The translations under genes and the position numbers were made by a program. The notes under the pieces were generated by a model. It was given only the letters and a program-made list of their open reading frames with translations. It made no database searches and was not told the origin of the DNA. Positions 2,035-50,459 of a DNA stretch of 64,000 bases are shown piece by piece. The stretch lies in the UHGV virus genome UHGV-1493261. The stretch is one strand, 5' to 3'. Each line of letters starts with the position of its first letter. The stretch's first letter is position 1. The DNA is from a virus.

Positions 2035-3543
2035 ATGGCAGACATTCAGATTGTTAAGGTTAACGAAGTCCGCATGCGTTGCATCGCAGATCTTTCTATC
2101 AGGGAAGAACTTAATGACTACTTCAAATTCGAAGACCCGAACTTCGTTCCCAACCCCTTCTCTAAATGGGACGGGGTTGTCCGCCTATTTACCAAGTCAT
2201 CTGGTCTAATCGATATCGGTCTGCTGTTTGAGGTATTTAAGTTCTGTAAGAACAACGGATACACCATTGAACTGGATCCGGCACTGAAGTACATTCAGGA
2301 CATCCCAGATGAAGAAATCCGTGACTTCATCGACAGTCTGCATCCAAAGATCCGCACCGAAAATCACGAATATATCGATGCCGAGACTCGTGACTACCAG
2401 TACGACACCATTGCCAAGGCTATGCGTCAAACCAGATGCGTCTGTGAACTGGCTACGAGTGCCGGTAAGTCCTTTATTCTGTATGTCATGGCGCGGTACT
2501 ACAGGCGGCGCAGAGAAGCTCTCGAAAGTCCTCTGAAGACGCTTATCGTGGTGCCGTCAATCCACCTAGTCACTCAGCTGTACGACAACTTCGAAGAGTA
2601 TGCGCATGGCAGTGATTGGAAGCCCGTTGTTAACACCCAGCTGATTTTTGAGGGCGCGACAAAGGATATCAGCAAACCAATCGTCATCAGTACATGGCAA
2701 GGCATTCAAGACCAGCCGAAGGAATGGTTCCACCAGTTCGGTGATATCGTGGTGGACGAAGTGCACACCTCCAAGTCTGAGAAACTGTCTTACATCCTAA
2801 ACAACTGCATCTATGCCGACCAGCGCCTGGGGGTTACAGGTACGCTGGCGAACACCAAAGTTGCCGGGCTTCAGGTGGTGGCTCACTTCGGGGCGTACCA
2901 TAAGATCATCACGGCTCGCGACCTTATCAATCTCGGGTACGCCACTGACATCAAAGTGAAGATGATTCAGCTGAAGCACACTCCGGCGGATGCCGTTGGT
3001 CTGGACGGGGATTATTCCAAGGAAATAGAATACCTTATTACACACCAGTCCCGCAACGAACTGATCGCAAAGATGGCGCTGAATCTGAAAGGAAACGTGG
3101 CCATCATGTTCGAGCGTATTGATGGCCACATGATGGTCGTGTATGATATGCTGAGCGCAGTCAAGCCCAACGTGTTTGTCATCAACGGGGAAGTGAAGAT
3201 CGAAGACCGCCGCCACATACAGAAAGCGATGGAGGACGGAGAGGACATCACCCTGTTAGCATCATACGGAACAATGCAGCAGGGTGTGTCAATCAATAAG
3301 CTGCACCACCTTGTACTGGCACACCCGAGCAAGTCATATATCCGCGTCATACAGACATTGGGTCGTCTGATGCGTCAGCACTCCTCTAAGGACGTTGCGT
3401 GGATATGGGACTTAGTTGATGATGCATCGTATAACGCCAGCACGAACCACGCTCTTAGGCACTCTCATGAGCGTTACAAGTTTTACCTGGCAGAGCGCCA
3501 CCCTGTGGAGTTCATGAAGGTGGCGCTGGGTAATCACGATTAA
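2035..3543 (+). CDS. uvsW: UvsW-like SF2 DNA helicase
   Basis: Start moved to ATG 2035 (GGGAGA RBS) inside track ORF 1942..3543. Walker A ATSAGKS, DEVH box, and C-terminal LHHLVLAHPSKSYIRVIQTLGRLMRQHSSKDVAWIWDLVDD nearly matching T4 UvsW LHHVVLAHGVKSKIIVLQTIGRVLRKHGSKTIATVWDLIDD. Confidence 0.85.
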   Translation: MADIQIVKVNEVRMRCIADLSIREELNDYFKFEDPNFVPNPFSKWDGVVRLFTKSSGLIDIGLLFEVFKFCKNNGYTIELDPALKYIQDIPDEEIRDFIDSLHPKIRTENHEYIDAETRDYQYDTIAKAMRQTRCVCELATSAGKSFILYVMARYYRRRREALESPLKTLIVVPSIHLVTQLYDNFEEYAHGSDWKPVVNTQLIFEGATKDISKPIVISTWQGIQDQPKEWFHQFGDIVVDEVHTSKSEKLSYILNNCIYADQRLGVTGTLANTKVAGLQVVAHFGAYHKIITARDLINLGYATDIKVKMIQLKHTPADAVGLDGDYSKEIEYLITHQSRNELIAKMALNLKGNVAIMFERIDGHMMVVYDMLSAVKPNVFVINGEVKIEDRRHIQKAMEDGEDITLLASYGTMQQGVSINKLHHLVLAHPSKSYIRVIQTLGRLMRQHSSKDVAWIWDLVDDASYNASTNHALRHSHERYKFYLAERHPVEFMKVALGNHD

Positions 3544-3911
3544 TCTTGATTCACATAGGCGGGGGTGGCCTCGCCTTCATCAGATACTACGCCGAACAAT
3601 TTGTCCAGAGAAGCCAGACATTGTGAGTTCAGGTGTTCACTGATCGTATCCTTCAGCATTTGTTCACTACCCAATTTGAATGGCAGAACCTTCGCTTCGA
3701 TGCCGTTTTCAAACGTCACAACGCCGACATACAGACCAACTTTCAGGCCTGTCATCAAGCCAAGGGGGACAAATCGCGGTTCCGATGGTAAGTTCTTGTC
3801 TGACGCCAGCTGTGTCAGATAAACTGGGGTGCTTGTGACAAATTGCCCTGCGGTGAGGATGGCGTCTGGCTTACTGCATCCGACCGCATATAATCCTACG
3901 AACTGTTTCAT
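3540..3911 (-). CDS. hypothetical protein
   Basis: 123-aa minus-strand ORF convergent with uvsW. GAGAG RBS about 9 nt upstream of ATG. Protein-like composition, no recognised motif. Confidence 0.4.
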   Translation of the reverse strand: MKQFVGLYAVGCSKPDAILTAGQFVTSTPVYLTQLASDKNLPSEPRFVPLGLMTGLKVGLYVGVVTFENGIEAKVLPFKLGSEQMLKDTISEHLNSQCLASLDKLFGVVSDEGEATPAYVNQD

Positions 3912-4074
3912 ATATTACTCTCGTGTGTTGGTTAACATGACATACATATTATTTCGCGTGCATGTTTAGACCAAATAAATTAATTTTGCTGTTGAATAAA
4001 AACTGCTTTCTTGTTGAACAATGGCGTGGTATTATACGAGTTGTGAGCGTTAGCGAACAACGAGTATTTGTTTT

Positions 4075-4094
4075 ATGAGCGAAGCGAATAGGAT
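4075..4094 (+). repeat. 20-mer ATGAGCGAAGCGAATAGGAT, copy 1
   Basis: Exact 20-nt match to the reverse complement of 49249-49268. Both copies are directly preceded on the + strand by TATTTGTTTTA. Confidence 0.7.
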
Positions 4095-4101
4095 TAATAA
4101 A

Positions 4102-4140
4102 GATTATTATCTTTAATAAAGGTTATTATCTTTAATAAAG
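4102..4140. repeat. AT-rich tandem direct repeat (2 x 19-20 bp, plus partial third copy)
   Basis: TTATTATCTTTAATAAAG at 4104-4121 and again at 4123-4140; partial copy ATTAATAAAG at 4093-4102. In the 360-bp intergenic region upstream of gp45. Confidence 0.7.
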
Positions 4141-4272
4141 TCCATAAATGCCGAAGGCATTTATTATAACGCGTAGCGCAATTTGCCACTTGTTCTATAA
4201 GCAAAACACAGCGATACTAGATTGCGTCAAACATGACTTGAATCCCCCACTATATTTTGAGGATACATACAA

Positions 4273-4941
4273 ATGCAAGAGATCACTCTCTCCGAACGTA
4301 CACTTCAGTTGCTGGCCAACTTTGAGACCATCAACCCATCTATCGTTCTGACACCGGGCAAGATGCTGCGCAGTATTAATGATTCTTCTACTGTGATCGC
4401 CGTGGCGCAGATCGAAGAAGACTTCCCGTTTGAGTTCCCGATTCTGGACCTGACCAAACTTCTGGCCATCCAGCGCCTACCTTCCTTCAAAGGTGCCAAA
4501 GCCGAATTTCATCAGGACTACATCCTGTTGAAAGGTGAAAGCTCTCAACTGCAGTTCTGGCGCTCCGCCAAAGAACTGACTGTGGTCCCGGCCGACACCA
4601 TCGAACTGCCTTCCGTCGACTTTGAAGCGATCATCACTCCAGAGAAGATGAAAGAACTGACCCGCGCCTGTTCTACCCTCGGACACAAGACTGTGCGCCT
4701 GGTTGCTCAGGGTGGCAAAACACGCCTGGTTGCAACCACCACTACCCTAGACAACTCCAACAACTACACTGTTGAGCTGGGCGAAACCGCACTGCCGGAC
4801 TTCGTAATGCCGCTGGATGTTGCCAACCTGAAAATGATCGAAGGCAACTACACTCTGCGTGCATGTGCTGATCTACAGATGGTGAACTTCCAATCATCCG
4901 ACGCGACGATCAATTACTTCGTCGGCGCACAGATTGAGTAA
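4273..4941 (+). CDS. gp45: sliding clamp (gp45-like)
   Basis: 222 aa, GAGGA RBS. N-terminus LSERTLQLLANFETINPSIVL parallels T4 gp45 LSKDTTALLKNFATINSGIML. Immediately followed by the clamp loader genes. Confidence 0.75.
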   Translation: MQEITLSERTLQLLANFETINPSIVLTPGKMLRSINDSSTVIAVAQIEEDFPFEFPILDLTKLLAIQRLPSFKGAKAEFHQDYILLKGESSQLQFWRSAKELTVVPADTIELPSVDFEAIITPEKMKELTRACSTLGHKTVRLVAQGGKTRLVATTTTLDNSNNYTVELGETALPDFVMPLDVANLKMIEGNYTLRACADLQMVNFQSSDATINYFVGAQIE

Positions 4942-46728: not shown

Positions 46729-47079
46729 ATGCAAGATTACAAAGAGCTGAGCATGCAGCTGGCAGTCCCCATACCCGACAAAGATTTATACCAGAACCTG
46801 CATCATCTGATGTCTGAAGGACACATGCTGTCATTGCAGTCTGAGGATGGAACTCAGATCGGTTATGCCACCAGTTGCGTGGTCTACGACAAACCAGGAG
46901 ACGAAGAGCGCGGACAGGTCAGTGTGGGTTCCAGATTTGTGTTGAACAAGAAGCTGGAGGGATCAGTGGTTGACGTCAGGCCGATGATTATCCTCTACCA
47001 CTTCAACGGTAAAGAGATGTTCAGGTTATTGAGCCACTTCATGTTAGTCGTGGCTCCGGCATTCAGGACGAAATTCTAA
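46729..47079 (+). CDS. hypothetical protein
   Basis: 116 aa, GGAG RBS. Converges on the gp25-like gene. Confidence 0.45.
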   Translation: MQDYKELSMQLAVPIPDKDLYQNLHHLMSEGHMLSLQSEDGTQIGYATSCVVYDKPGDEERGQVSVGSRFVLNKKLEGSVVDVRPMIILYHFNGKEMFRLLSHFMLVVAPAFRTKF

Positions 47080-47456
47080 TTCGTCCTTTTCAACCACACG
47101 GTGTCTGTTATTGGATCTGGATTGTTGACCACATAGAATGTGATGGTAACGCCCAGAGAATGGTAATCCTCTGACAGACTCACCGTGACTTCTTCTACCT
47201 CTGCTCTGGGTTCATACAGGGCGATAGCGTCCTCTACTTTGTTCCTCACGTCTACCTGGATAGTCGGTGTCGTGTTTTCGCCCAGCAGCCCATAAAGCCC
47301 CGCGCCGATCCCAGGATAAGTAGGCCAATCCCCAACCGAAGACATGACGATATTCCGCACGGATTGTAAGACAGCATACACACCTGATTTCATGGTGACA
47401 TCTTTGGTCACCGGATGCATGCCGAACTTCAGATCGACATCTTTATACTCTTTCAT
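47076..47456 (-). CDS. gp25: baseplate wedge protein (gp25-like, GPW family)
   Basis: 126 aa. GDWPTYPGIGAGLYGLLGENTTP...ALYEPRAEVEEV...FYVVNNPDPI parallels T4 gp25 (GSRPFDPEFGCDLSDQLFENMTP...RNYEPRIDKLAV...FSVIDNPDDI). GAGAGGA RBS. Confidence 0.75.
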   Translation of the reverse strand: MKEYKDVDLKFGMHPVTKDVTMKSGVYAVLQSVRNIVMSSVGDWPTYPGIGAGLYGLLGENTTPTIQVDVRNKVEDAIALYEPRAEVEEVTVSLSEDYHSLGVTITFYVVNNPDPITDTVWLKRTN

Positions 47457-47529
47457 TTCGCGATCCTCTCAGGATGCCTATAAGGAGCAGAGAGACGTGC
47501 TGCCCCTCTGCCACCAAACTTATACCAAC

Positions 47530-49140
47530 TTACTCTTTGGTGCCGAAATTACCACCATTGTCTTTTAATTCTGCCTTGATGTCAATCTCACCCGGACCCG
47601 TAGGGGATGCAGGGGTTGCACCTGACAGAGAAGAAGCGCGACCAGCACCTTCGGCATATATGATGTTACCATTGATCGTCTGAGCGACAGTCAGTTTGTC
47701 AGCGATTATCTCAGTCGTTAGAATCTTAGGAACCTTCAATGTCCCGCCGACCTCCAGAGTCTCGCAGATAATGCGCAGAATATTCTGCGCTTGCATTTCC
47801 GCTAGGTCACTGAATTTCATCAGCGCTGTGCCCGCAACCACATTTGAGTAGTTGTTGGAATGCAAATGATAGACCTCACCTGTCTTGCGCTGAACTTCAG
47901 TTCCTTTGACCGTCAGGTTGTGGTCCCCGCCGACATAATAACGCTTGTTGAACATCGTCAGGTCATAGTGGTCTTTGACGGACTTGTTGACCACATCACC
48001 ATCCGGCAACATTTGCTTGTAAGACCCAGACTTATGCATCCAATGAAGACGTTCACCACCAGGGGTGTCATCCACTTCCATAATATGCCCAGCTCGGGAC
48101 ACCATGACGTTATTGTACGGGTATTTGGAGCCACCCGCAGCCGGAACTATGGTCTCTCCAGTGTTGTCAATATCCCGCACTCGCCCAGTGGGAGCCGGAG
48201 TCGGTTGTTCCTTTGGAGTACGATCTGGGATAGGTTCTGACCATTTACCATTCTGCTGAGCAGGCAAGGCTGTGGCTGTGTTAGCAGGACCAGGCCAACG
48301 ATACCCCAAGACCGAAGAACGTCTGAAACGACTGACCTTCACTGAATCGGATTGGTTGCCACCAATACACCAGACATAGTTTTCATCGAACTTCTGTACA
48401 AACGCCACGTGTCCAAATGTAGGGTTGTTACCACGCCGGAAGACTACGATAGCACCATATTGTGGTGCTGACAGTGGAGTGCCCCATGTAAGGTAAGATC
48501 GGGCAAGAGCGGAGCGTGTAGACGTGTATCCAGCCTGTATCATAACCCAACCCACGAACGCCGCACACCACGACACTTCATCTTCAGAAGCACCAAGGGA
48601 GGTTGTCTTGTGATATTCTATAATGCGCGGGTTGTTGTTGAACTTTCCGGCATACTCCTTGATACCCAATTCGCCACGAGCGATTGTCATCCACTTCTCT
48701 GGATCATACCCACCAACAGGTGGTTGTGGATCTGGTTGTGGTTCGTCTTCTTGTTTCACAGGAACGTCAGTGACAGCGTTGTACGCCTGACGTTCTACAG
48801 ATTGAACGACCTGCCCGAGAGCCAGCGGGTTTGTGTCGGCGCCATCAGTAGGGCTTGAACCAGTCCAAGTCCAGGTGATGCGTAAATTCTGGTATGCTTC
48901 GTCAAGGGCGAACCCCATAACCTCAGTGCCAGGAATGATACCCGTTGGAGACCAACCTAAACCAGCAGAGGAGGCATTTGAAGCAGGCATCAGTACCTTC
49001 GCCCATGGGAGTTTGTCTGTAGGCAGGAGGACGGGATCGTCGGTGTGTACGCCATATATGCGGACGGCGACGCGCCCGTTTTGGTCTGGATCGTTGACAT
49101 CTTCAACGGTGCCGTAAAACCATCTCATATTGTCTAACAT
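47530..49140 (-). CDS. gp5: baseplate hub / tail-associated lysozyme-like protein (gp5-like)
   Basis: 536 aa. N-terminal OB-like FYGTVEDVNDPDQNGRVAVRIYGVH; central peptidase/lysozyme-like block (EYAGKFNNNPRIIEYH...SWCAAFVGWV...GHVAFV); C-terminal repetitive region. CATAAATA 35 nt upstream of ATG on the - strand. Confidence 0.75.
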   Translation of the reverse strand: MLDNMRWFYGTVEDVNDPDQNGRVAVRIYGVHTDDPVLLPTDKLPWAKVLMPASNASSAGLGWSPTGIIPGTEVMGFALDEAYQNLRITWTWTGSSPTDGADTNPLALGQVVQSVERQAYNAVTDVPVKQEDEPQPDPQPPVGGYDPEKWMTIARGELGIKEYAGKFNNNPRIIEYHKTTSLGASEDEVSWCAAFVGWVMIQAGYTSTRSALARSYLTWGTPLSAPQYGAIVVFRRGNNPTFGHVAFVQKFDENYVWCIGGNQSDSVKVSRFRRSSVLGYRWPGPANTATALPAQQNGKWSEPIPDRTPKEQPTPAPTGRVRDIDNTGETIVPAAGGSKYPYNNVMVSRAGHIMEVDDTPGGERLHWMHKSGSYKQMLPDGDVVNKSVKDHYDLTMFNKRYYVGGDHNLTVKGTEVQRKTGEVYHLHSNNYSNVVAGTALMKFSDLAEMQAQNILRIICETLEVGGTLKVPKILTTEIIADKLTVAQTINGNIIYAEGAGRASSLSGATPASPTGPGEIDIKAELKDNGGNFGTKE

Positions 49141-49174
49141 ATTGAGTTCCGGTTGTCAAACAAGGATTTGAAGG

Positions 49175-49182
49175 TATTTATG
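49175..49182 (-). promoter_or_regulatory. late promoter-like CATAAATA
   Basis: 7/8 match to TATAAATA on the - strand, again exactly 35 nt upstream of the gp5-like ATG at 49140. Confidence 0.45.
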
Positions 49183-49248
49183 CGCAGCTGATTTTGCCTT
49201 ATATACTATAGGAAGCTCTGCTTCCGTTCATTTTATTTGTTTTATTCG

Positions 49249-49268
49249 ATCCTATTCGCTTCGCTCAT
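49249..49268 (-). repeat. 20-mer ATGAGCGAAGCGAATAGGAT, copy 2 (inverted)
   Basis: Reverse complement of 4075-4094, located in the 510-bp intergenic region between the gp5-like and zinc-ribbon genes. Confidence 0.7.
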
Positions 49269-49486
49269 CAAACCGCCCTATGCGGGCAGCACCATTCCAA
49301 TGCCATGGAGGCATAAGGGCGAGGCAATAACTGTACACCCCAGAACACTCCTTGAAAAATGGTATTTTACTGACAATCTGATTCAAAACAAACAAACACC
49401 AACAAATGACTCGGGAACAAGCCCATTATAGCAATTTCAGGTAAAGAGAGTGCGTGTTAACCGATTTTACAGTTAAGCCAATAAAA

Positions 49487-49504
49487 ATCCCGCCGAAGCG
49501 GGAT
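49487..49504 (-). terminator. rho-independent terminator (minus-strand orientation)
   Basis: ATCCCGC / CGAA / GCGGGAT with A-run 49483-49487 on the + strand, i.e. U-run on the - strand downstream of the minus gene ending 49653. Confidence 0.55.
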
Positions 49505-49652
49505 TACTGTTTCTTAGACAACCTGACCTTGAGGGCTTCGGTTAACAAGTCAAGATGCCATGGCATCGACTCGTTGATTTCAAATATGCTATAGCCGTGT
49601 AACTTCAATTCATCACACATCACGAAGTAGGATAATAAATCAGTTTCAAACA

Positions 49653-50459
49653 TTAAATGAAAATTTCATTAATACTATTGAATTCGATTTTGTGCTCCTT
49701 ACCACATTTCGGACACTTGATCGAACTCTTGTAGTGGATGCGCGGTATTTTGTGGAAGAAGTTCTTCGTAATGCTGTCAATAACATCTGATTCGATGTTA
49801 TCCTTCACCCACTCAACAAACGCTTCTTTCACACGGCGGCGCTCAGTAGCCTCTTCCGGAGTGATTCCGATTTCTTCAGGATTCTCAACCTTCCACACCT
49901 GACCGTCATCATCGTACAGACAGTCGATAAAGGTGGCCAGCATCATCTCAACGCTTGCAGCATCAGACAGTGCCGTAGCGTCCGAGAAGGAAGGTTGGCG
50001 CATCTTGAGGTGATATCCACCTGGCAAGTCAAACGTCTCCCGGAAGCCGTCCTGAGCAATGCATTTGACGTTGTTCAACGGGATAGGTAGAGTCAGTTCC
50101 TGCTCACAGGGAACCATCTGACGCTTTTCTTGACCATCTCCCAGATCGATCGTTTCTTCAATCTGATTATTGCACTTATAACGAATCTTCATCAATTCAC
50201 CGATGGAGATCATGCGCATGCGGATGAACACTTCCTCAACAACGCCGATTGGCAGTTTACTGAAAGGTGCGCCTGCATTTACACACTCGCTAAAGAGACT
50301 CTCCATCATGGCCGCGCGTTCTTCAATCGGCGTTTGCGGATCTGACACCTGAAGTAATAAAGTTTGTTGCCCCGCAGTAAAGGCGCGATATTTGATCACA
50401 GTAGGCCAAAAGTCGCTTTTATATGTCTTTTCTGTTCTGGGCAATGATGGTAAATTCAT
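49653..50459 (-). CDS. hypothetical protein with C-terminal zinc ribbon; possible baseplate hub component by position
   Basis: Start at minus ATG 50459 (GGAGAT RBS) inside track ORF ending 50573. C-terminal CPKCGKEHKIEF. Adjacent to gp5/gp25 on the same strand. Terminator at 49487-49504. Confidence 0.45.
   Translation of the reverse strand: MNLPSLPRTEKTYKSDFWPTVIKYRAFTAGQQTLLLQVSDPQTPIEERAAMMESLFSECVNAGAPFSKLPIGVVEEVFIRMRMISIGELMKIRYKCNNQIEETIDLGDGQEKRQMVPCEQELTLPIPLNNVKCIAQDGFRETFDLPGGYHLKMRQPSFSDATALSDAASVEMMLATFIDCLYDDDGQVWKVENPEEIGITPEEATERRRVKEAFVEWVKDNIESDVIDSITKNFFHKIPRIHYKSSIKCPKCGKEHKIEFNSINEIFI

Follow-up and report, generated by a model that had tools for sequence, protein, structure and literature searches.

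A probable structured RNA element, conserved between two baseplate hub genes of Ackermannviridae phages

Our analysis of a 64,000-nt stretch of the UHGV virus genome UHGV-1493261 (hereafter the window), which derives from an Agtrevirus-like phage of the Ackermannviridae, points to a structured RNA encoded on the minus strand of the long gap between two baseplate hub genes. We estimate at about 70% the probability that this gap encodes a functional minus-strand structured RNA element. Such an RNA would be new and previously undescribed, and it is most likely regulatory; its specific mechanism is much less certain than the RNA element itself. The first-pass annotation of this DNA had raised the possibility of a small RNA encoded in this region, and that possibility has gained support: in at least four genera, a fold of several helices is conserved, compensatory changes are numerous, and the strand signal is clear. 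The Ackermannviridae (ViI, CBA120, LIMEstone, Ag3, and their relatives) are widely sequenced and are used for biocontrol. We know of no RNA-based regulation described in this T4-related family, and the searchable literature contained nothing on Ackermannviridae transcriptomes or on this RNA. The single-copy, strongly constrained folded RNA in the gap is therefore a candidate for RNA-based regulation. If it binds a protein or a ligand, it would define a new regulatory RNA class; otherwise, it would still be a well-defined candidate for an Rfam family.

Genomic Setting of the Gap

The upstream neighbor of the element is a gp26-like baseplate hub gene (49653..50459, minus strand; phrog_150, E 4e-56), whose homologues carry the Pfam domain T4_baseplate. 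The downstream neighbor is a gp5-like baseplate hub/tail lysozyme gene (47530..49140, minus strand; phrog_430, E 3e-153), with the Pfam domains Gp5_OB and CHAP in the homologues of related contigs. These hub genes form a late island that is antisense to the flanking early genes. Positions 49141-49652 had been described as a 510-bp gene-free region. A long noncoding stretch does separate the gp5-like and gp26-like genes, but 49504-49653 is coding and the noncoding gap proper covers 49141-49503 (363 nt). Ranked on PQ306799.1, an annotated relative that is 99.5% identical, this 363-nt gap comes first among the 66 inter-CDS gaps in 49 kb, the runner-up being 257 nt long. It carries no annotation in the great majority of the ~270-280 matching phage genome records. 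Homing endonuclease genes are present elsewhere in these phages.

The coding part is orf49 (49504..49653, minus strand), a conserved 49-codon gene that matches phrog_9633 (E 2.9e-39) and, more weakly, phrog_634, the baseplate hub assembly catalyst family (E 4e-4). It is a real gene, already annotated in Ag3 and LIMEstone1, and its conservation at the protein level reaches Vibrio and Aeromonas relatives, which corrects the local annotation. The 38-aa ORF suggested earlier at 49504..49620 is real coding sequence but represents only the C-terminal part of orf49, as codons 1-11, upstream of that start, show protein-level conservation with synonymous changes. The start codon of orf49, non-AUG in most lineages and AUU in Kuttervirus, overlaps the gp26 stop codon (TAATG). 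This overlap accounts for the missing RBS, and through it the translation of orf49 appears to be coupled to that of gp26. At the other end, the stop codon sits within a terminator stem.

The rest of the gap showed no coding signal. The + strand ORF at 49237..49431 had been judged spurious and indeed is, since indels break its frame and no consistently open + frame exists round the core in the other lineages. Likewise, no reading frame conserved at the protein level was found in the 363-nt gap among the lineages compared, and ARAGORN predicted no tRNA or tmRNA gene in the whole window.

A Conserved Fold on the Minus Strand

A structure-blind MAFFT alignment of 28 distinct sequences was analyzed with RNAalifold, which predicted the helices P1, S1, H2, and H1. 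Together with the pseudoknot helix S2, these five counted helices span ~49211-49323 and are paired in 98.6% of the cells of the alignment, against 29-50% for slid controls. Changes on both sides of a pair occur at eight pairs and in 47 cells across the 28 sequences. The covariation score is 0.195 compared with 0.090 in shuffled alignments, and none of the 500 shuffles reached the observed value. The compensatory changes therefore go beyond the controls, as is generally asked of a conserved structured RNA. When read as minus-strand RNA, 99.7% of the cells pair, while the plus-strand reading gives 88.8%. The fold contains 85 G·U cells and no A·C cells, and this asymmetry places it on the minus strand, in the same sense as gp26, orf49, and gp5.

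The center of the fold is an invariant core (49292..49317, minus strand) that forms an H-type pseudoknot of S1 and S2. S1 (AUGCC/GGCAU; 49310-14 with 49300-04) is invariant, and its extension (49316-17 with 49297-98) varies from C-G to U·G in 8 of the 28 sequences. S2 (CCAU/AUGG) pairs 49305-08 with 49292-95. Its pair 49306/49294 is A-U in 14 distinct sequences and C-G in the other 14, with zero intermediates, and this swap requires at least three events on the gp26 tree. The two stems cross with feasible loops: S1 has 5 bp, L1 1 nt, S2 4 bp, and L3 4 nt.

The pseudoknot and the hairpin H2 are enclosed by the long-range helix P1, in which the 5′ strand CUCGC (49319..49323, minus strand) pairs with 49255-49259 (GCGAG or GCGAA). 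Four core pairs of P1 are 100% paired, and its sole variants are G·U pairs in the lineages L187 and L181. P1 is supported but not proven, as it shows no double-sided change; being invariant, P1 and S1 cannot be proven by covariation. H2 (49272..49290, minus strand; 7 bp, 49284-49290 with 49272-49278) is paired in 99% of the cells. Three of its pairs have changed on both sides (CCC/GGG, CCU/AGG, UCU/AGA, CAU/AUG), each by two or more events on the gp26 tree, with U-A, U·G, and C-G intermediates, and it contributes 47 G·U cells that pair in the minus-strand reading only.

The 3′ end of the RNA unit is closed by the hairpin H1 (49211..49225, strand not assigned; GGAAGC-TCT-GCTTCC), which is paired in 100% of the cells and has changed on both sides at four of its six pairs, with the stem variants GGATGC, GGCTGC, GGTTTGC, GACTGC, and GGCGGC. 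H1 has no G·U pairs and so gives no strand signal. On the + strand, H1 and the T-rich run behind it look like an intrinsic terminator; as a minus-strand terminator H1 is unconvincing, the minus-strand sequence after it being UAUAGUAU or UAUAGUAUAU, with no U-tract. Between P1 and H1 lies an unpaired A-rich linker (49226..49254, minus strand; AAUAAAACAAAUAAAAUGAAC..., T-rich on the + strand), for which helix searches of the alignment found no conserved pairing.

A candidate alternative helix, P0 (49337..49341 with 49321-49325, minus strand), overlaps the 5′ strand of P1. It is weak, with 68% of the cells paired and one C-G swap in L192; a matching hairpin is found in Serratia. A distal pairing of 49273-49278 with 49316-49321 had been spotted by eye in three genera. 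It was rejected in favor of the local H2, as it gives C·A in Ag3 and Taipeivirus and suffers insertions in the new lineages. A 5′ hairpin at 49408-49423 was also discarded, not being conserved. An exhaustive search for covarying helices over 49150-49512 recovered only S2, H2, and two implausible 4-bp runs, RNAalifold gave no structure for 49340-49485, and no conserved alternative terminator/antiterminator pair was found. The folding energy of the single sequence is unremarkable (z = -0.61 for the minus strand and -1.48 for the plus strand).

Conservation across Related Phages

The length and sequence of the gap are kept in Agtrevirus, Limestonevirus, Kuttervirus, and Taipeivirus, as well as in ~10 further lineages, with identities of ~93% in Limestonevirus, 71-74% over 286 nt in Kuttervirus, and ~72% in Taipeivirus. 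Unrelated sequence of variable length in the syntenic region, which the first-pass annotation had named as evidence against its own proposal, was not observed. The distance from the late promoter of gp5 to orf49 is 369-388 nt at 28 loci (the four named genera and Serratia) and is shorter, 289 nt, in Erwinia Bue1. Twelve Logan/ENA lineages also retain the gap, with ~520-575 nt between gp26 and gp5, and the core is retained wherever it is covered.

The block 49280-49339 is 97, 97, 83, 83, 80, and 78% identical to LIMEstone1, L024, two Kuttervirus loci, and two Taipeivirus loci, respectively, which equals or exceeds the identity of the flanking gp5 and gp26 coding DNA; the core at 49272-49323 is conserved to the same degree as the flanking structural genes. 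A 22-nt core pattern occurs once per genome and in these phages only (IMG/VR), and a covariance model of the element has a single match in the window (181.9 bits, E 1.6e-33). In the Serratia and Erwinia relatives, the flanks are retained but the pseudoknot core is replaced, and the core is therefore not indispensable family-wide. The central domain of the element appears to have been swapped in these lineages.

Scanning Rfam 15 (E up to 10) yielded no family at E < 0.1 or at its gathering threshold. The best scores, isrB with 22.4 bits (threshold 35) and rsmX with 21.4 bits (threshold 56), were driven by the terminator hairpin (49483-49578) and not by the core. Metagenome scans with the core pattern and a gp26 profile returned no usable match, and a search for host RNA mimicry gave none in 5,426 E. 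coli genomes.

Terminator and Promoter Signals

The structured unit lies downstream of the intrinsic terminator that ends the gp26-orf49 operon and upstream of the gp5 late promoter. That terminator (49478..49505, minus strand) consists of an 8-bp stem with a 4-nt loop (49486-49505) and a U5AUU tail (U-tract at 49478-49485). Its GC-rich stem and U-tract agree with the minus-oriented terminator noted previously; the stem covaries between lineages, and the terminator is annotated in LIMEstone1.

A near-consensus late promoter had likewise been proposed for gp5, and the evidence for this T4-type signal (49175..49182, minus strand; CATAAATA) has become stronger. ATAAATA is kept in every lineage covering the site, Serratia and Erwinia included, preceded by C, or by A in L056, L188, L190, and L192. 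The TATAAATA-like octamer thus reads CATAAATA or AATAAATA in every covering lineage and lies ~35 nt from the gp5 AUG. It is annotated in LIMEstone1 as a -10 late promoter and was predicted independently in Ag3 as Porf084 (PMC3121705). Homologues of gp55 and gp33 are encoded by this phage family (PMC3121705; also in the gene table of this study).

Other promoter-like sequences are less clear. A -10-like hexamer directly 3′ of H1 (49205..49210, minus strand), a candidate by sequence match, reads TATAGT in the window, TATAAT in most lineages, and TATTAT in L191. In some lineages, it forms a sigma-70-like pair with (T)TGAAC 5′ of H1, at a spacing of 15-18 nt. The upstream part of the gap (49345..49478, minus strand) is largely unstructured and, in the lineage alignment, shows the conserved blocks TAAAAACCATTTTTCAAGG (~49352-49370), TTTTGAAT (49381-49388), ACCTGAAATTGCTATAAT (49425-49441), and GCTTAACTGTAAAACAGGTTAA (49457-49478). 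At 49425-49433 on the minus strand, TGCTATAAT matches an extended -10 element and is a candidate promoter. The last base of its -10 varies (TATAAC, TATAAA, and TATATG in several lineages), the T being lost in Limestonevirus, Kuttervirus, and others, and this block does not recur as a motif within the window. A sigma-70 consensus scan found no site. MotA-box spacing, a sigma-54 -24/-12 match, and extra late promoters were considered, and all failed on inspection by eye. The combination of its own promoter and a Rho-independent terminator with a poly-U tail, as expected of Hfq-type trans-acting sRNAs, was not found for the element.

Alternative Explanations

The element could be a control module that acts at the DNA level on the + strand, with H1 as its terminator, followed by an AT-rich tract and then by a promoter or an activator site. 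This site would be a 20-mer (49248..49267, + strand; family consensus ACTCGCT(N)CGCTCG) that includes the 3′ strand of P1. The first-pass annotation had reported an inverted copy of this 20-mer, and the copy is real: 49248-49267 (+) and 4076-4095 (-) are identical at 19 of 20 positions, with 0 such matches expected by chance. The similarity extends to ~33 nt, and this 33-mer is the only complementarity to the core found elsewhere in the window. The second copy lies in site A (3912..4272, strand not assigned), the intergenic region that separates two divergent genes, one for a 123-aa protein (3540..3911, minus strand) and the other the sliding clamp gene gp45 (4273..4941, + strand); the module adjoins the gp45 and UvsW helicase genes. 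In site A, the motif is accompanied by a hairpin and an AT-rich tract, arranged as in the gap (site B), and the Serratia site-B sequence matches site A of Klebsiella phage May over 106 nt (E 2e-4). Covariance-model matches at site A are weak and lie on the gp45-directed strand in three genomes. The 20-mer marks a paralogy between part of the element and the gp45-upstream region, linking the RNA element to a second conserved noncoding module beside a replication clamp gene. A 14-mer of the motif gave mostly chance matches in IMG/VR and was uninformative.

In support of such a DNA module, the motif of site A lies upstream of a good sigma-70 promoter, which the LIMEstone1 annotators called a putative middle promoter, and H1 has a T-rich tail on the + strand. 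The module might be a middle promoter, or a T4-like origin primed, as at T4 oriE and oriF, by an early or middle transcript antisense to the late baseplate genes, the late hub-gene island being comparable in this respect to the T4 oriE region (PMC3016281). Like oriE, oriF, and oriG of T4, the gap is noncoding, has a promoter-like motif and an AT-rich tract, and lies in or beside late baseplate genes antisense to early transcription (PMC3016281). T4-like origins consist of a promoter with a DNA-unwinding element downstream that forms an R-loop or, in the oriE type, of iterons. The gap differs in that it shares no motif with the T4 origins and has no iterons, and in that the feature under selection is a folded single strand of minus polarity, which is not described for those origins; there is also no GC-skew inflection at the site. 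The would-be + promoter is also poor in the lineage of the window (GCACCA-N17-CATAAG), consistent with the empty promoter scan. The half-sites of H2, S2, and H1 change with complementarity kept, which is unlike protein-binding sites in DNA, and the excess of G·U over A·C cells argues for selection on a fold in the single minus strand. We therefore regard control at the DNA level as improbable as the main explanation, but it retains an outside chance; for the 20-mer and H1, the DNA and RNA readings are not mutually exclusive.

The minus strand of the conserved core could instead be translated into a micro-protein or a leader peptide (MPPWHW(N/K)G..., AUG at 49314), and its translation would melt the fold as in an attenuator. 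All 28 distinct sequences retain the AUG and the first 8 codons, the frame is open over 17-37 codons, and its stop often falls right after the 3′ strand of P1. But an open frame of ~20 codons arises by chance in ~38% of cases, (61/64)^20, the AUG is buried in the S1 stem, and the sequence upstream, CCUCGCCCUU, has no purine-rich Shine-Dalgarno. After codon 8, frame shifts make the peptides diverge even where the nucleotide sequences remain alike (L181 against Kuttervirus, L020 against L004), and the variable third positions at 49306 and 49294 always change together as a base pair. This makes a coding role quite unlikely, and a short RBS-bearing ORF that alters downstream pairing, the hallmark of leader-peptide attenuators, was not found here. 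A fold in single-stranded DNA, such as a primosome or primase loading site or a minus-strand recombination or packaging signal, appears less likely again. Covariation by itself cannot tell RNA from ssDNA, no clear promoter is present, and recombination-dependent replication provides abundant ssDNA in T4-like phages (PMC3016281). However, DNA hairpins tolerate G·T pairs poorly, while the fold has two invariant wobble positions and frequent U·G intermediates, and invariant loops in an H-type pseudoknot are a typical feature of RNA. To our knowledge, no ssDNA element of this kind is known in T4-like phages. Finally, the length of the gap for this genome and the homing endonuclease genes of these phages might suggest a neutral spacer or, as was also proposed at the outset, the decaying remains of a gene that was lost or mobile. 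This we find scarcely credible, given that length and sequence are conserved across genera with a core as conserved as the essential flanking genes, that compensatory changes are present, that neither an ORF remnant nor a frame is conserved at the protein level, and that each genome has one copy.

Possible Function and Comparison with Known Systems

Transcription from the predicted late promoter would begin downstream of the fold, and the main late mRNA of gp5 should therefore not carry the structured RNA, although longer transcripts might. The RNA would then be made from its own early/middle-type promoter, with TGCTATAAT at 49425-49433 as the candidate, or by read-through of the upstream terminator. 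The U-rich, unstructured stretch of ~130 nt upstream of the fold carries conserved sequence blocks, and the invariant pseudoknot might offer a binding surface for a protein or for the transcription or translation machinery. If the RNA is real, our tentative preference, held at somewhat less than even odds, is for a cis-acting role in which the element, as a protein-bound translational or antitermination operator, controls pre-late or read-through transcripts that run into gp5. A stand-alone small RNA acting in trans or as a decoy would be the next possibility, and one to be taken seriously. More speculative, and on balance unlikely, is a reading in which the element, conserved among the enterobacterial Ackermannviridae used in biocontrol, founds a new class of regulatory RNAs in phages. 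It would act as a pseudoknotted sensor or decoy and thereby time gp5 expression or protect the phage; its ligand might be a small molecule or a specific protein, with RNA polymerase, the ribosome, baseplate-hub proteins, and host defence factors as examples.

Antitermination has a precedent in the put RNAs of phage HK022, cis-acting RNAs of two hairpins that cause processive antitermination. Like them, the element is a phage RNA domain of ~70-110 nt with two hairpins that has a further hairpin (H1) and late genes downstream, and by analogy late-gene expression could depend on read-through here as well. Unlike the element, the put RNAs have neither a pseudoknot nor a closing helix, they share no sequence or Rfam similarity with it, antitermination by the element is putative, and H1 is not convincing as a minus-strand terminator. 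The element also resembles the orphan phage RNA motifs (motif-type families of Rfam), which are defined by intergenic conservation and covariation alone within one phage group; unlike those, it is absent from Rfam 15 and from the searchable literature.

The pseudoknot of the T4 gene 32 mRNA leader is the operator for translational autoregulation in T4-like phages. Our element differs from it in several respects: the two share no sequence similarity, the pseudoknot here forms part of a larger domain that P1 closes and that contains a second hairpin, the neighbors are baseplate genes and not the gene for an ssDNA-binding protein, and the element lies upstream of the next gene's predicted late promoter and so would be outside the main mRNA. 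Both are nevertheless H-type pseudoknots with a first loop of 1 nt, noncoding and on the sense strand of the neighboring genes, and, as in the gene 32 pseudoknot, the loop nucleotides of the element are highly conserved, suggesting a protein-binding surface.

An unannotated gap in the baseplate-hub island

The region is 99-99.7% identical to the Agtrevirus-like Escherichia/Salmonella phages YX22, vB_CECAV_050, and A221, 95.5% to Shigella phage Ag3, and ~94% to Dickeya Limestonevirus. Here a late island of four genes, gp25, gp5, orf49, and gp26 (47076-50459), is encoded on one strand and all the early/middle genes flanking it on the other. The gp5-like hub/lysozyme gene (47530..49140, minus) adjoins the gap, and its product carries a CHAP-type hydrolase domain in place of the T4 lysozyme domain (Pfam Gp5_OB + CHAP in homologues); the gp26-like hub gene (49653..50459, minus) adjoins orf49. 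The first-pass annotation had described a 510-bp gene-free region between them. The gap is indeed long, but only 363 nt (49141-49503) are free, 49504-49653 being a gene. It is still the longest of the 66 inter-CDS gaps in 49 kb of the annotated near-identical phage PQ306799.1, where the runner-up measures 257 nt.

Our analysis uncovered in this gap a structured RNA element not described before, presumably transcribed, which contains a pseudoknot, is present family-wide, and occurs in a single copy. Within the hub gene island it has a terminator on one side and a late promoter on the other. We found it to be conserved, base-paired, assignable to one strand, unique, and without conservation at the protein level. 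The feature noticed in the first pass is real and of more interest than had been supposed. The landmarks reported there also held: the terminator, minus-oriented with its U-tract, has a covarying stem (49486-49505), and the gp5 late promoter CATAAATA (49175-49182, minus), also predicted independently, reads ATAAATA in every lineage covering the site, its first base being C, or A in four lineages. The inverted 20-mer (49248-49267) has a second copy on the other strand at 4076-4095, 19/20 identical with 0 expected by chance, and the similarity extends to ~33 nt. The + strand ORF in the gap is spurious, as suspected.

A conserved fold on the minus strand

The minus strand of 49200-49372 was aligned with MAFFT in 37 copies, 28 of them distinct, without structural information, helices were predicted with RNAalifold, and S2 was added afterwards as a crossing helix. 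The fold comprises the long-range helix P1 (49319-49322 with 49256-49259; CUCGC/GCGAG), S1 (49310-14 with 49300-04, plus 49316-17 with 49297-98; AUGCC/GGCAU), the pseudoknot S2 (49305-08 with 49292-95; CCAU/AUGG), H2 (49284-90 with 49272-78; 7 bp), all on the minus strand, and H1 (49220-25 with 49211-16; 6 bp). Pairing was kept in 98.6% of the 807 cells of the alignment, and eight pairs (47 cells) showed changes in both partners. For covariation the fold scored 0.195; shuffles scored 0.090 ± 0.007, and none of 500 reached the observed value; with partners slid by 1-3 columns, 29-50% of cells paired. H2 occurs as CCC/GGG, CCU/AGG, UCU/AGA, and CAU/AUG, plus U·G intermediates, and H1 as GGAAGC, GGAUGC, GGCUGC, GGUUUGC, and GACUGC, with GGCGGC in Erwinia. 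S2 is CCAU/AUGG in 14 distinct sequences and CCCU/AGGG in 14, the mixed form in none. On a gp26 NJ tree the S2 swap requires at least three events and the H2 swaps at least two each. P1 and S1 are invariant save G·U variants, and because the sequence there does not vary further these helices are plausible rather than proven. Upstream, 49345-49485 holds conserved sequence blocks but no conserved helix was found in it.

Cells pair in 99.7% of cases when the sequence is taken as minus-strand RNA and in 88.8% when it is taken as plus-strand RNA; G·U occurs in 85 cells and A·C in none. Single-sequence folds of the minus strand are 8-20 kcal/mol more stable in every lineage, although for the window itself the minus-strand folding energy does not stand out from that of shuffles (z = -0.61). 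H1 is uninformative on strand, since its variants are all Watson-Crick.

Distribution in the family

The gap lacks annotation in most of 270 matching records, yet it is conserved: identity is ~93% for Limestonevirus, 71-74% for Kuttervirus (across 286 nt), and ~72% for Taipeivirus (across the left half). In all these genera, as in Serratia phages, 369-388 nt separate the late promoter from orf49; Erwinia Bue1 has 289 nt. Sliding identity of 49280-49339 to six loci from four groups (97/97/83/83/80/78%) equals or exceeds that of adjacent coding DNA. A gp26 protein search returned ~20 further clusters in Logan/ENA assemblies. Contigs were taken from 12 clusters, 10 spanning gp26 to gp5 with a gap of ~520-575 nt including orf49, and the core is kept in every contig covering its position; one (L193) ends at the gp26 stop. 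At least 10 gp26 clusters, of 52-74% identity, come from assemblies without a named phage (L181-L192), which points to several Ackermannviridae genera not yet sampled; the hub-island layout is shared by all.

A covariance model of the alignment has a single hit in the window (E 1.6e-33) and also detects the syntenic sites in Erwinia (43 bits) and Serratia (~30 bits), the latter two through flanks only because other hairpins replace the pseudoknot and H2. These Serratia Miltonvirus phages and Erwinia Bue1 keep the late promoter, motif, upstream blocks, and terminator, while the S1/S2/H2 core is swapped for the hairpins AGACGG...CCGUCU and UAUC...GAUA. Three places in Serratia genomes match the Serratia version of the gap. 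The model had no match in Vibrio and Aeromonas loci, where the gap is only 100-200 nt. In IMG/VR the invariant 22-nt core pattern is confined to these phages, at one site per genome, and the JGI metagenome set has no occurrence of it. Rfam holds no matching family, no tRNA was found, 5,426 E. coli genomes showed no similarity, and the literature searched contained neither Ackermannviridae transcription maps nor this RNA.

The orf49 gene

The 38-aa minus-strand ORF proposed earlier is real, but the gene has 49 codons (49504-49653, minus; phrog_9633, E 2.9e-39), and its start overlaps the gp26 stop (TAATG), which accounts for the lack of an RBS remarked on both in the first pass and by the Ag3 annotators. 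Its product has a weak similarity to the family of baseplate hub assembly catalysts. It is already annotated in Ag3 and LIMEstone1; many GenBank records carry a shorter 42-aa ORF only, or nothing. The 5' end of the gene (49621-49655, minus) opens with AUG only in the Agtrevirus/Limestonevirus group and three other lineages. Codons 1-11, (M/I)FE(T/I)DLLSYFV, are kept with synonymous Leu/Tyr/Phe changes. In the other lineages AUU, AUC, or AUA stands at the overlap with the gp26 stop, and the N-terminal conservation persists: the next 10 codons, FE(T/I)DLLSYFV, are still kept with synonymous changes. The implication is either termination-reinitiation at a non-AUG codon or a frameshift that fuses orf49 to gp26.

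Expression and alternative readings

We infer that the element is transcribed, and likewise where its transcript starts and ends. The block TGCTATAAT (49425-49433, minus) matches an extended -10, with C, A, or G as last base in Limestonevirus, Kuttervirus, and several other lineages; a consensus scan gave no sigma-70 promoter. Instead of starting at such a candidate promoter, the transcript may arise by reading through the upstream terminator. The RNA is probably regulatory, either for the hub genes, binding a protein or machinery, or in trans.

Every copy has an open minus-strand ORF, MPPWHW(N/K)G..., from AUG 49314. No Shine-Dalgarno sequence precedes it, S1 pairing takes up its AUG, its C-terminal end diverges via frame shifts while the nucleotides remain similar, and its two variable third positions are both sides of one S2 base pair. 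Translation is very improbable, and we regard this ORF as a by-product of RNA constraints.

A DNA function, as a + strand terminator-promoter or origin-like module, seems unlikely and would concern mainly H1, the AT-rich tract, and the motif. It draws on site A (3912-4272), the intergenic stretch from which a 123-aa gene and the sliding clamp gene gp45 diverge, conserved family-wide (77-79% in Kuttervirus; loci L058 1190-1320, L059 430-560, L179, and L180), where the order of motif (ACTCGCT(N)CGCTCG), AT-rich tract, and hairpin is that of the gap. In Serratia the similarity is longer, the gap matching site A of Klebsiella phage May over 106 nt. In site A a good sigma-70 promoter follows the motif, its -35 overlapped by a second motif copy, and the LIMEstone1 annotators placed a putative middle promoter there (PMC3296691). 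H1 on the + strand looks like a terminator. T4 oriE lies among baseplate genes, with early and late transcription in opposite directions (PMC3016281), and the late island here is comparably antisense to its flanking genes. DNA sites, however, do not keep complementarity while their sequence changes, and the wobble asymmetry points to a minus-strand fold.

Some minor observations were made. gp25 and a convergent + strand gene overlap by 4 nt at the 3' end of the latter, and no terminator separates the two, so early + strand transcription may run antisense through gp25 and gp5, up to H1. A perfect TATAAATA lies in Erwinia Bue1 (L026 ~3925-3945), opposite in strand to the baseplate genes and directly before the terminator; it may be a chance match within an AT-rich tract. 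Just upstream of the site A motif (~4094-4140, minus) is a ~19-nt tandem repeat, CTTTATTAAAGATAATAAC, in ~2.5 copies, with one copy fewer in LIMEstone1.
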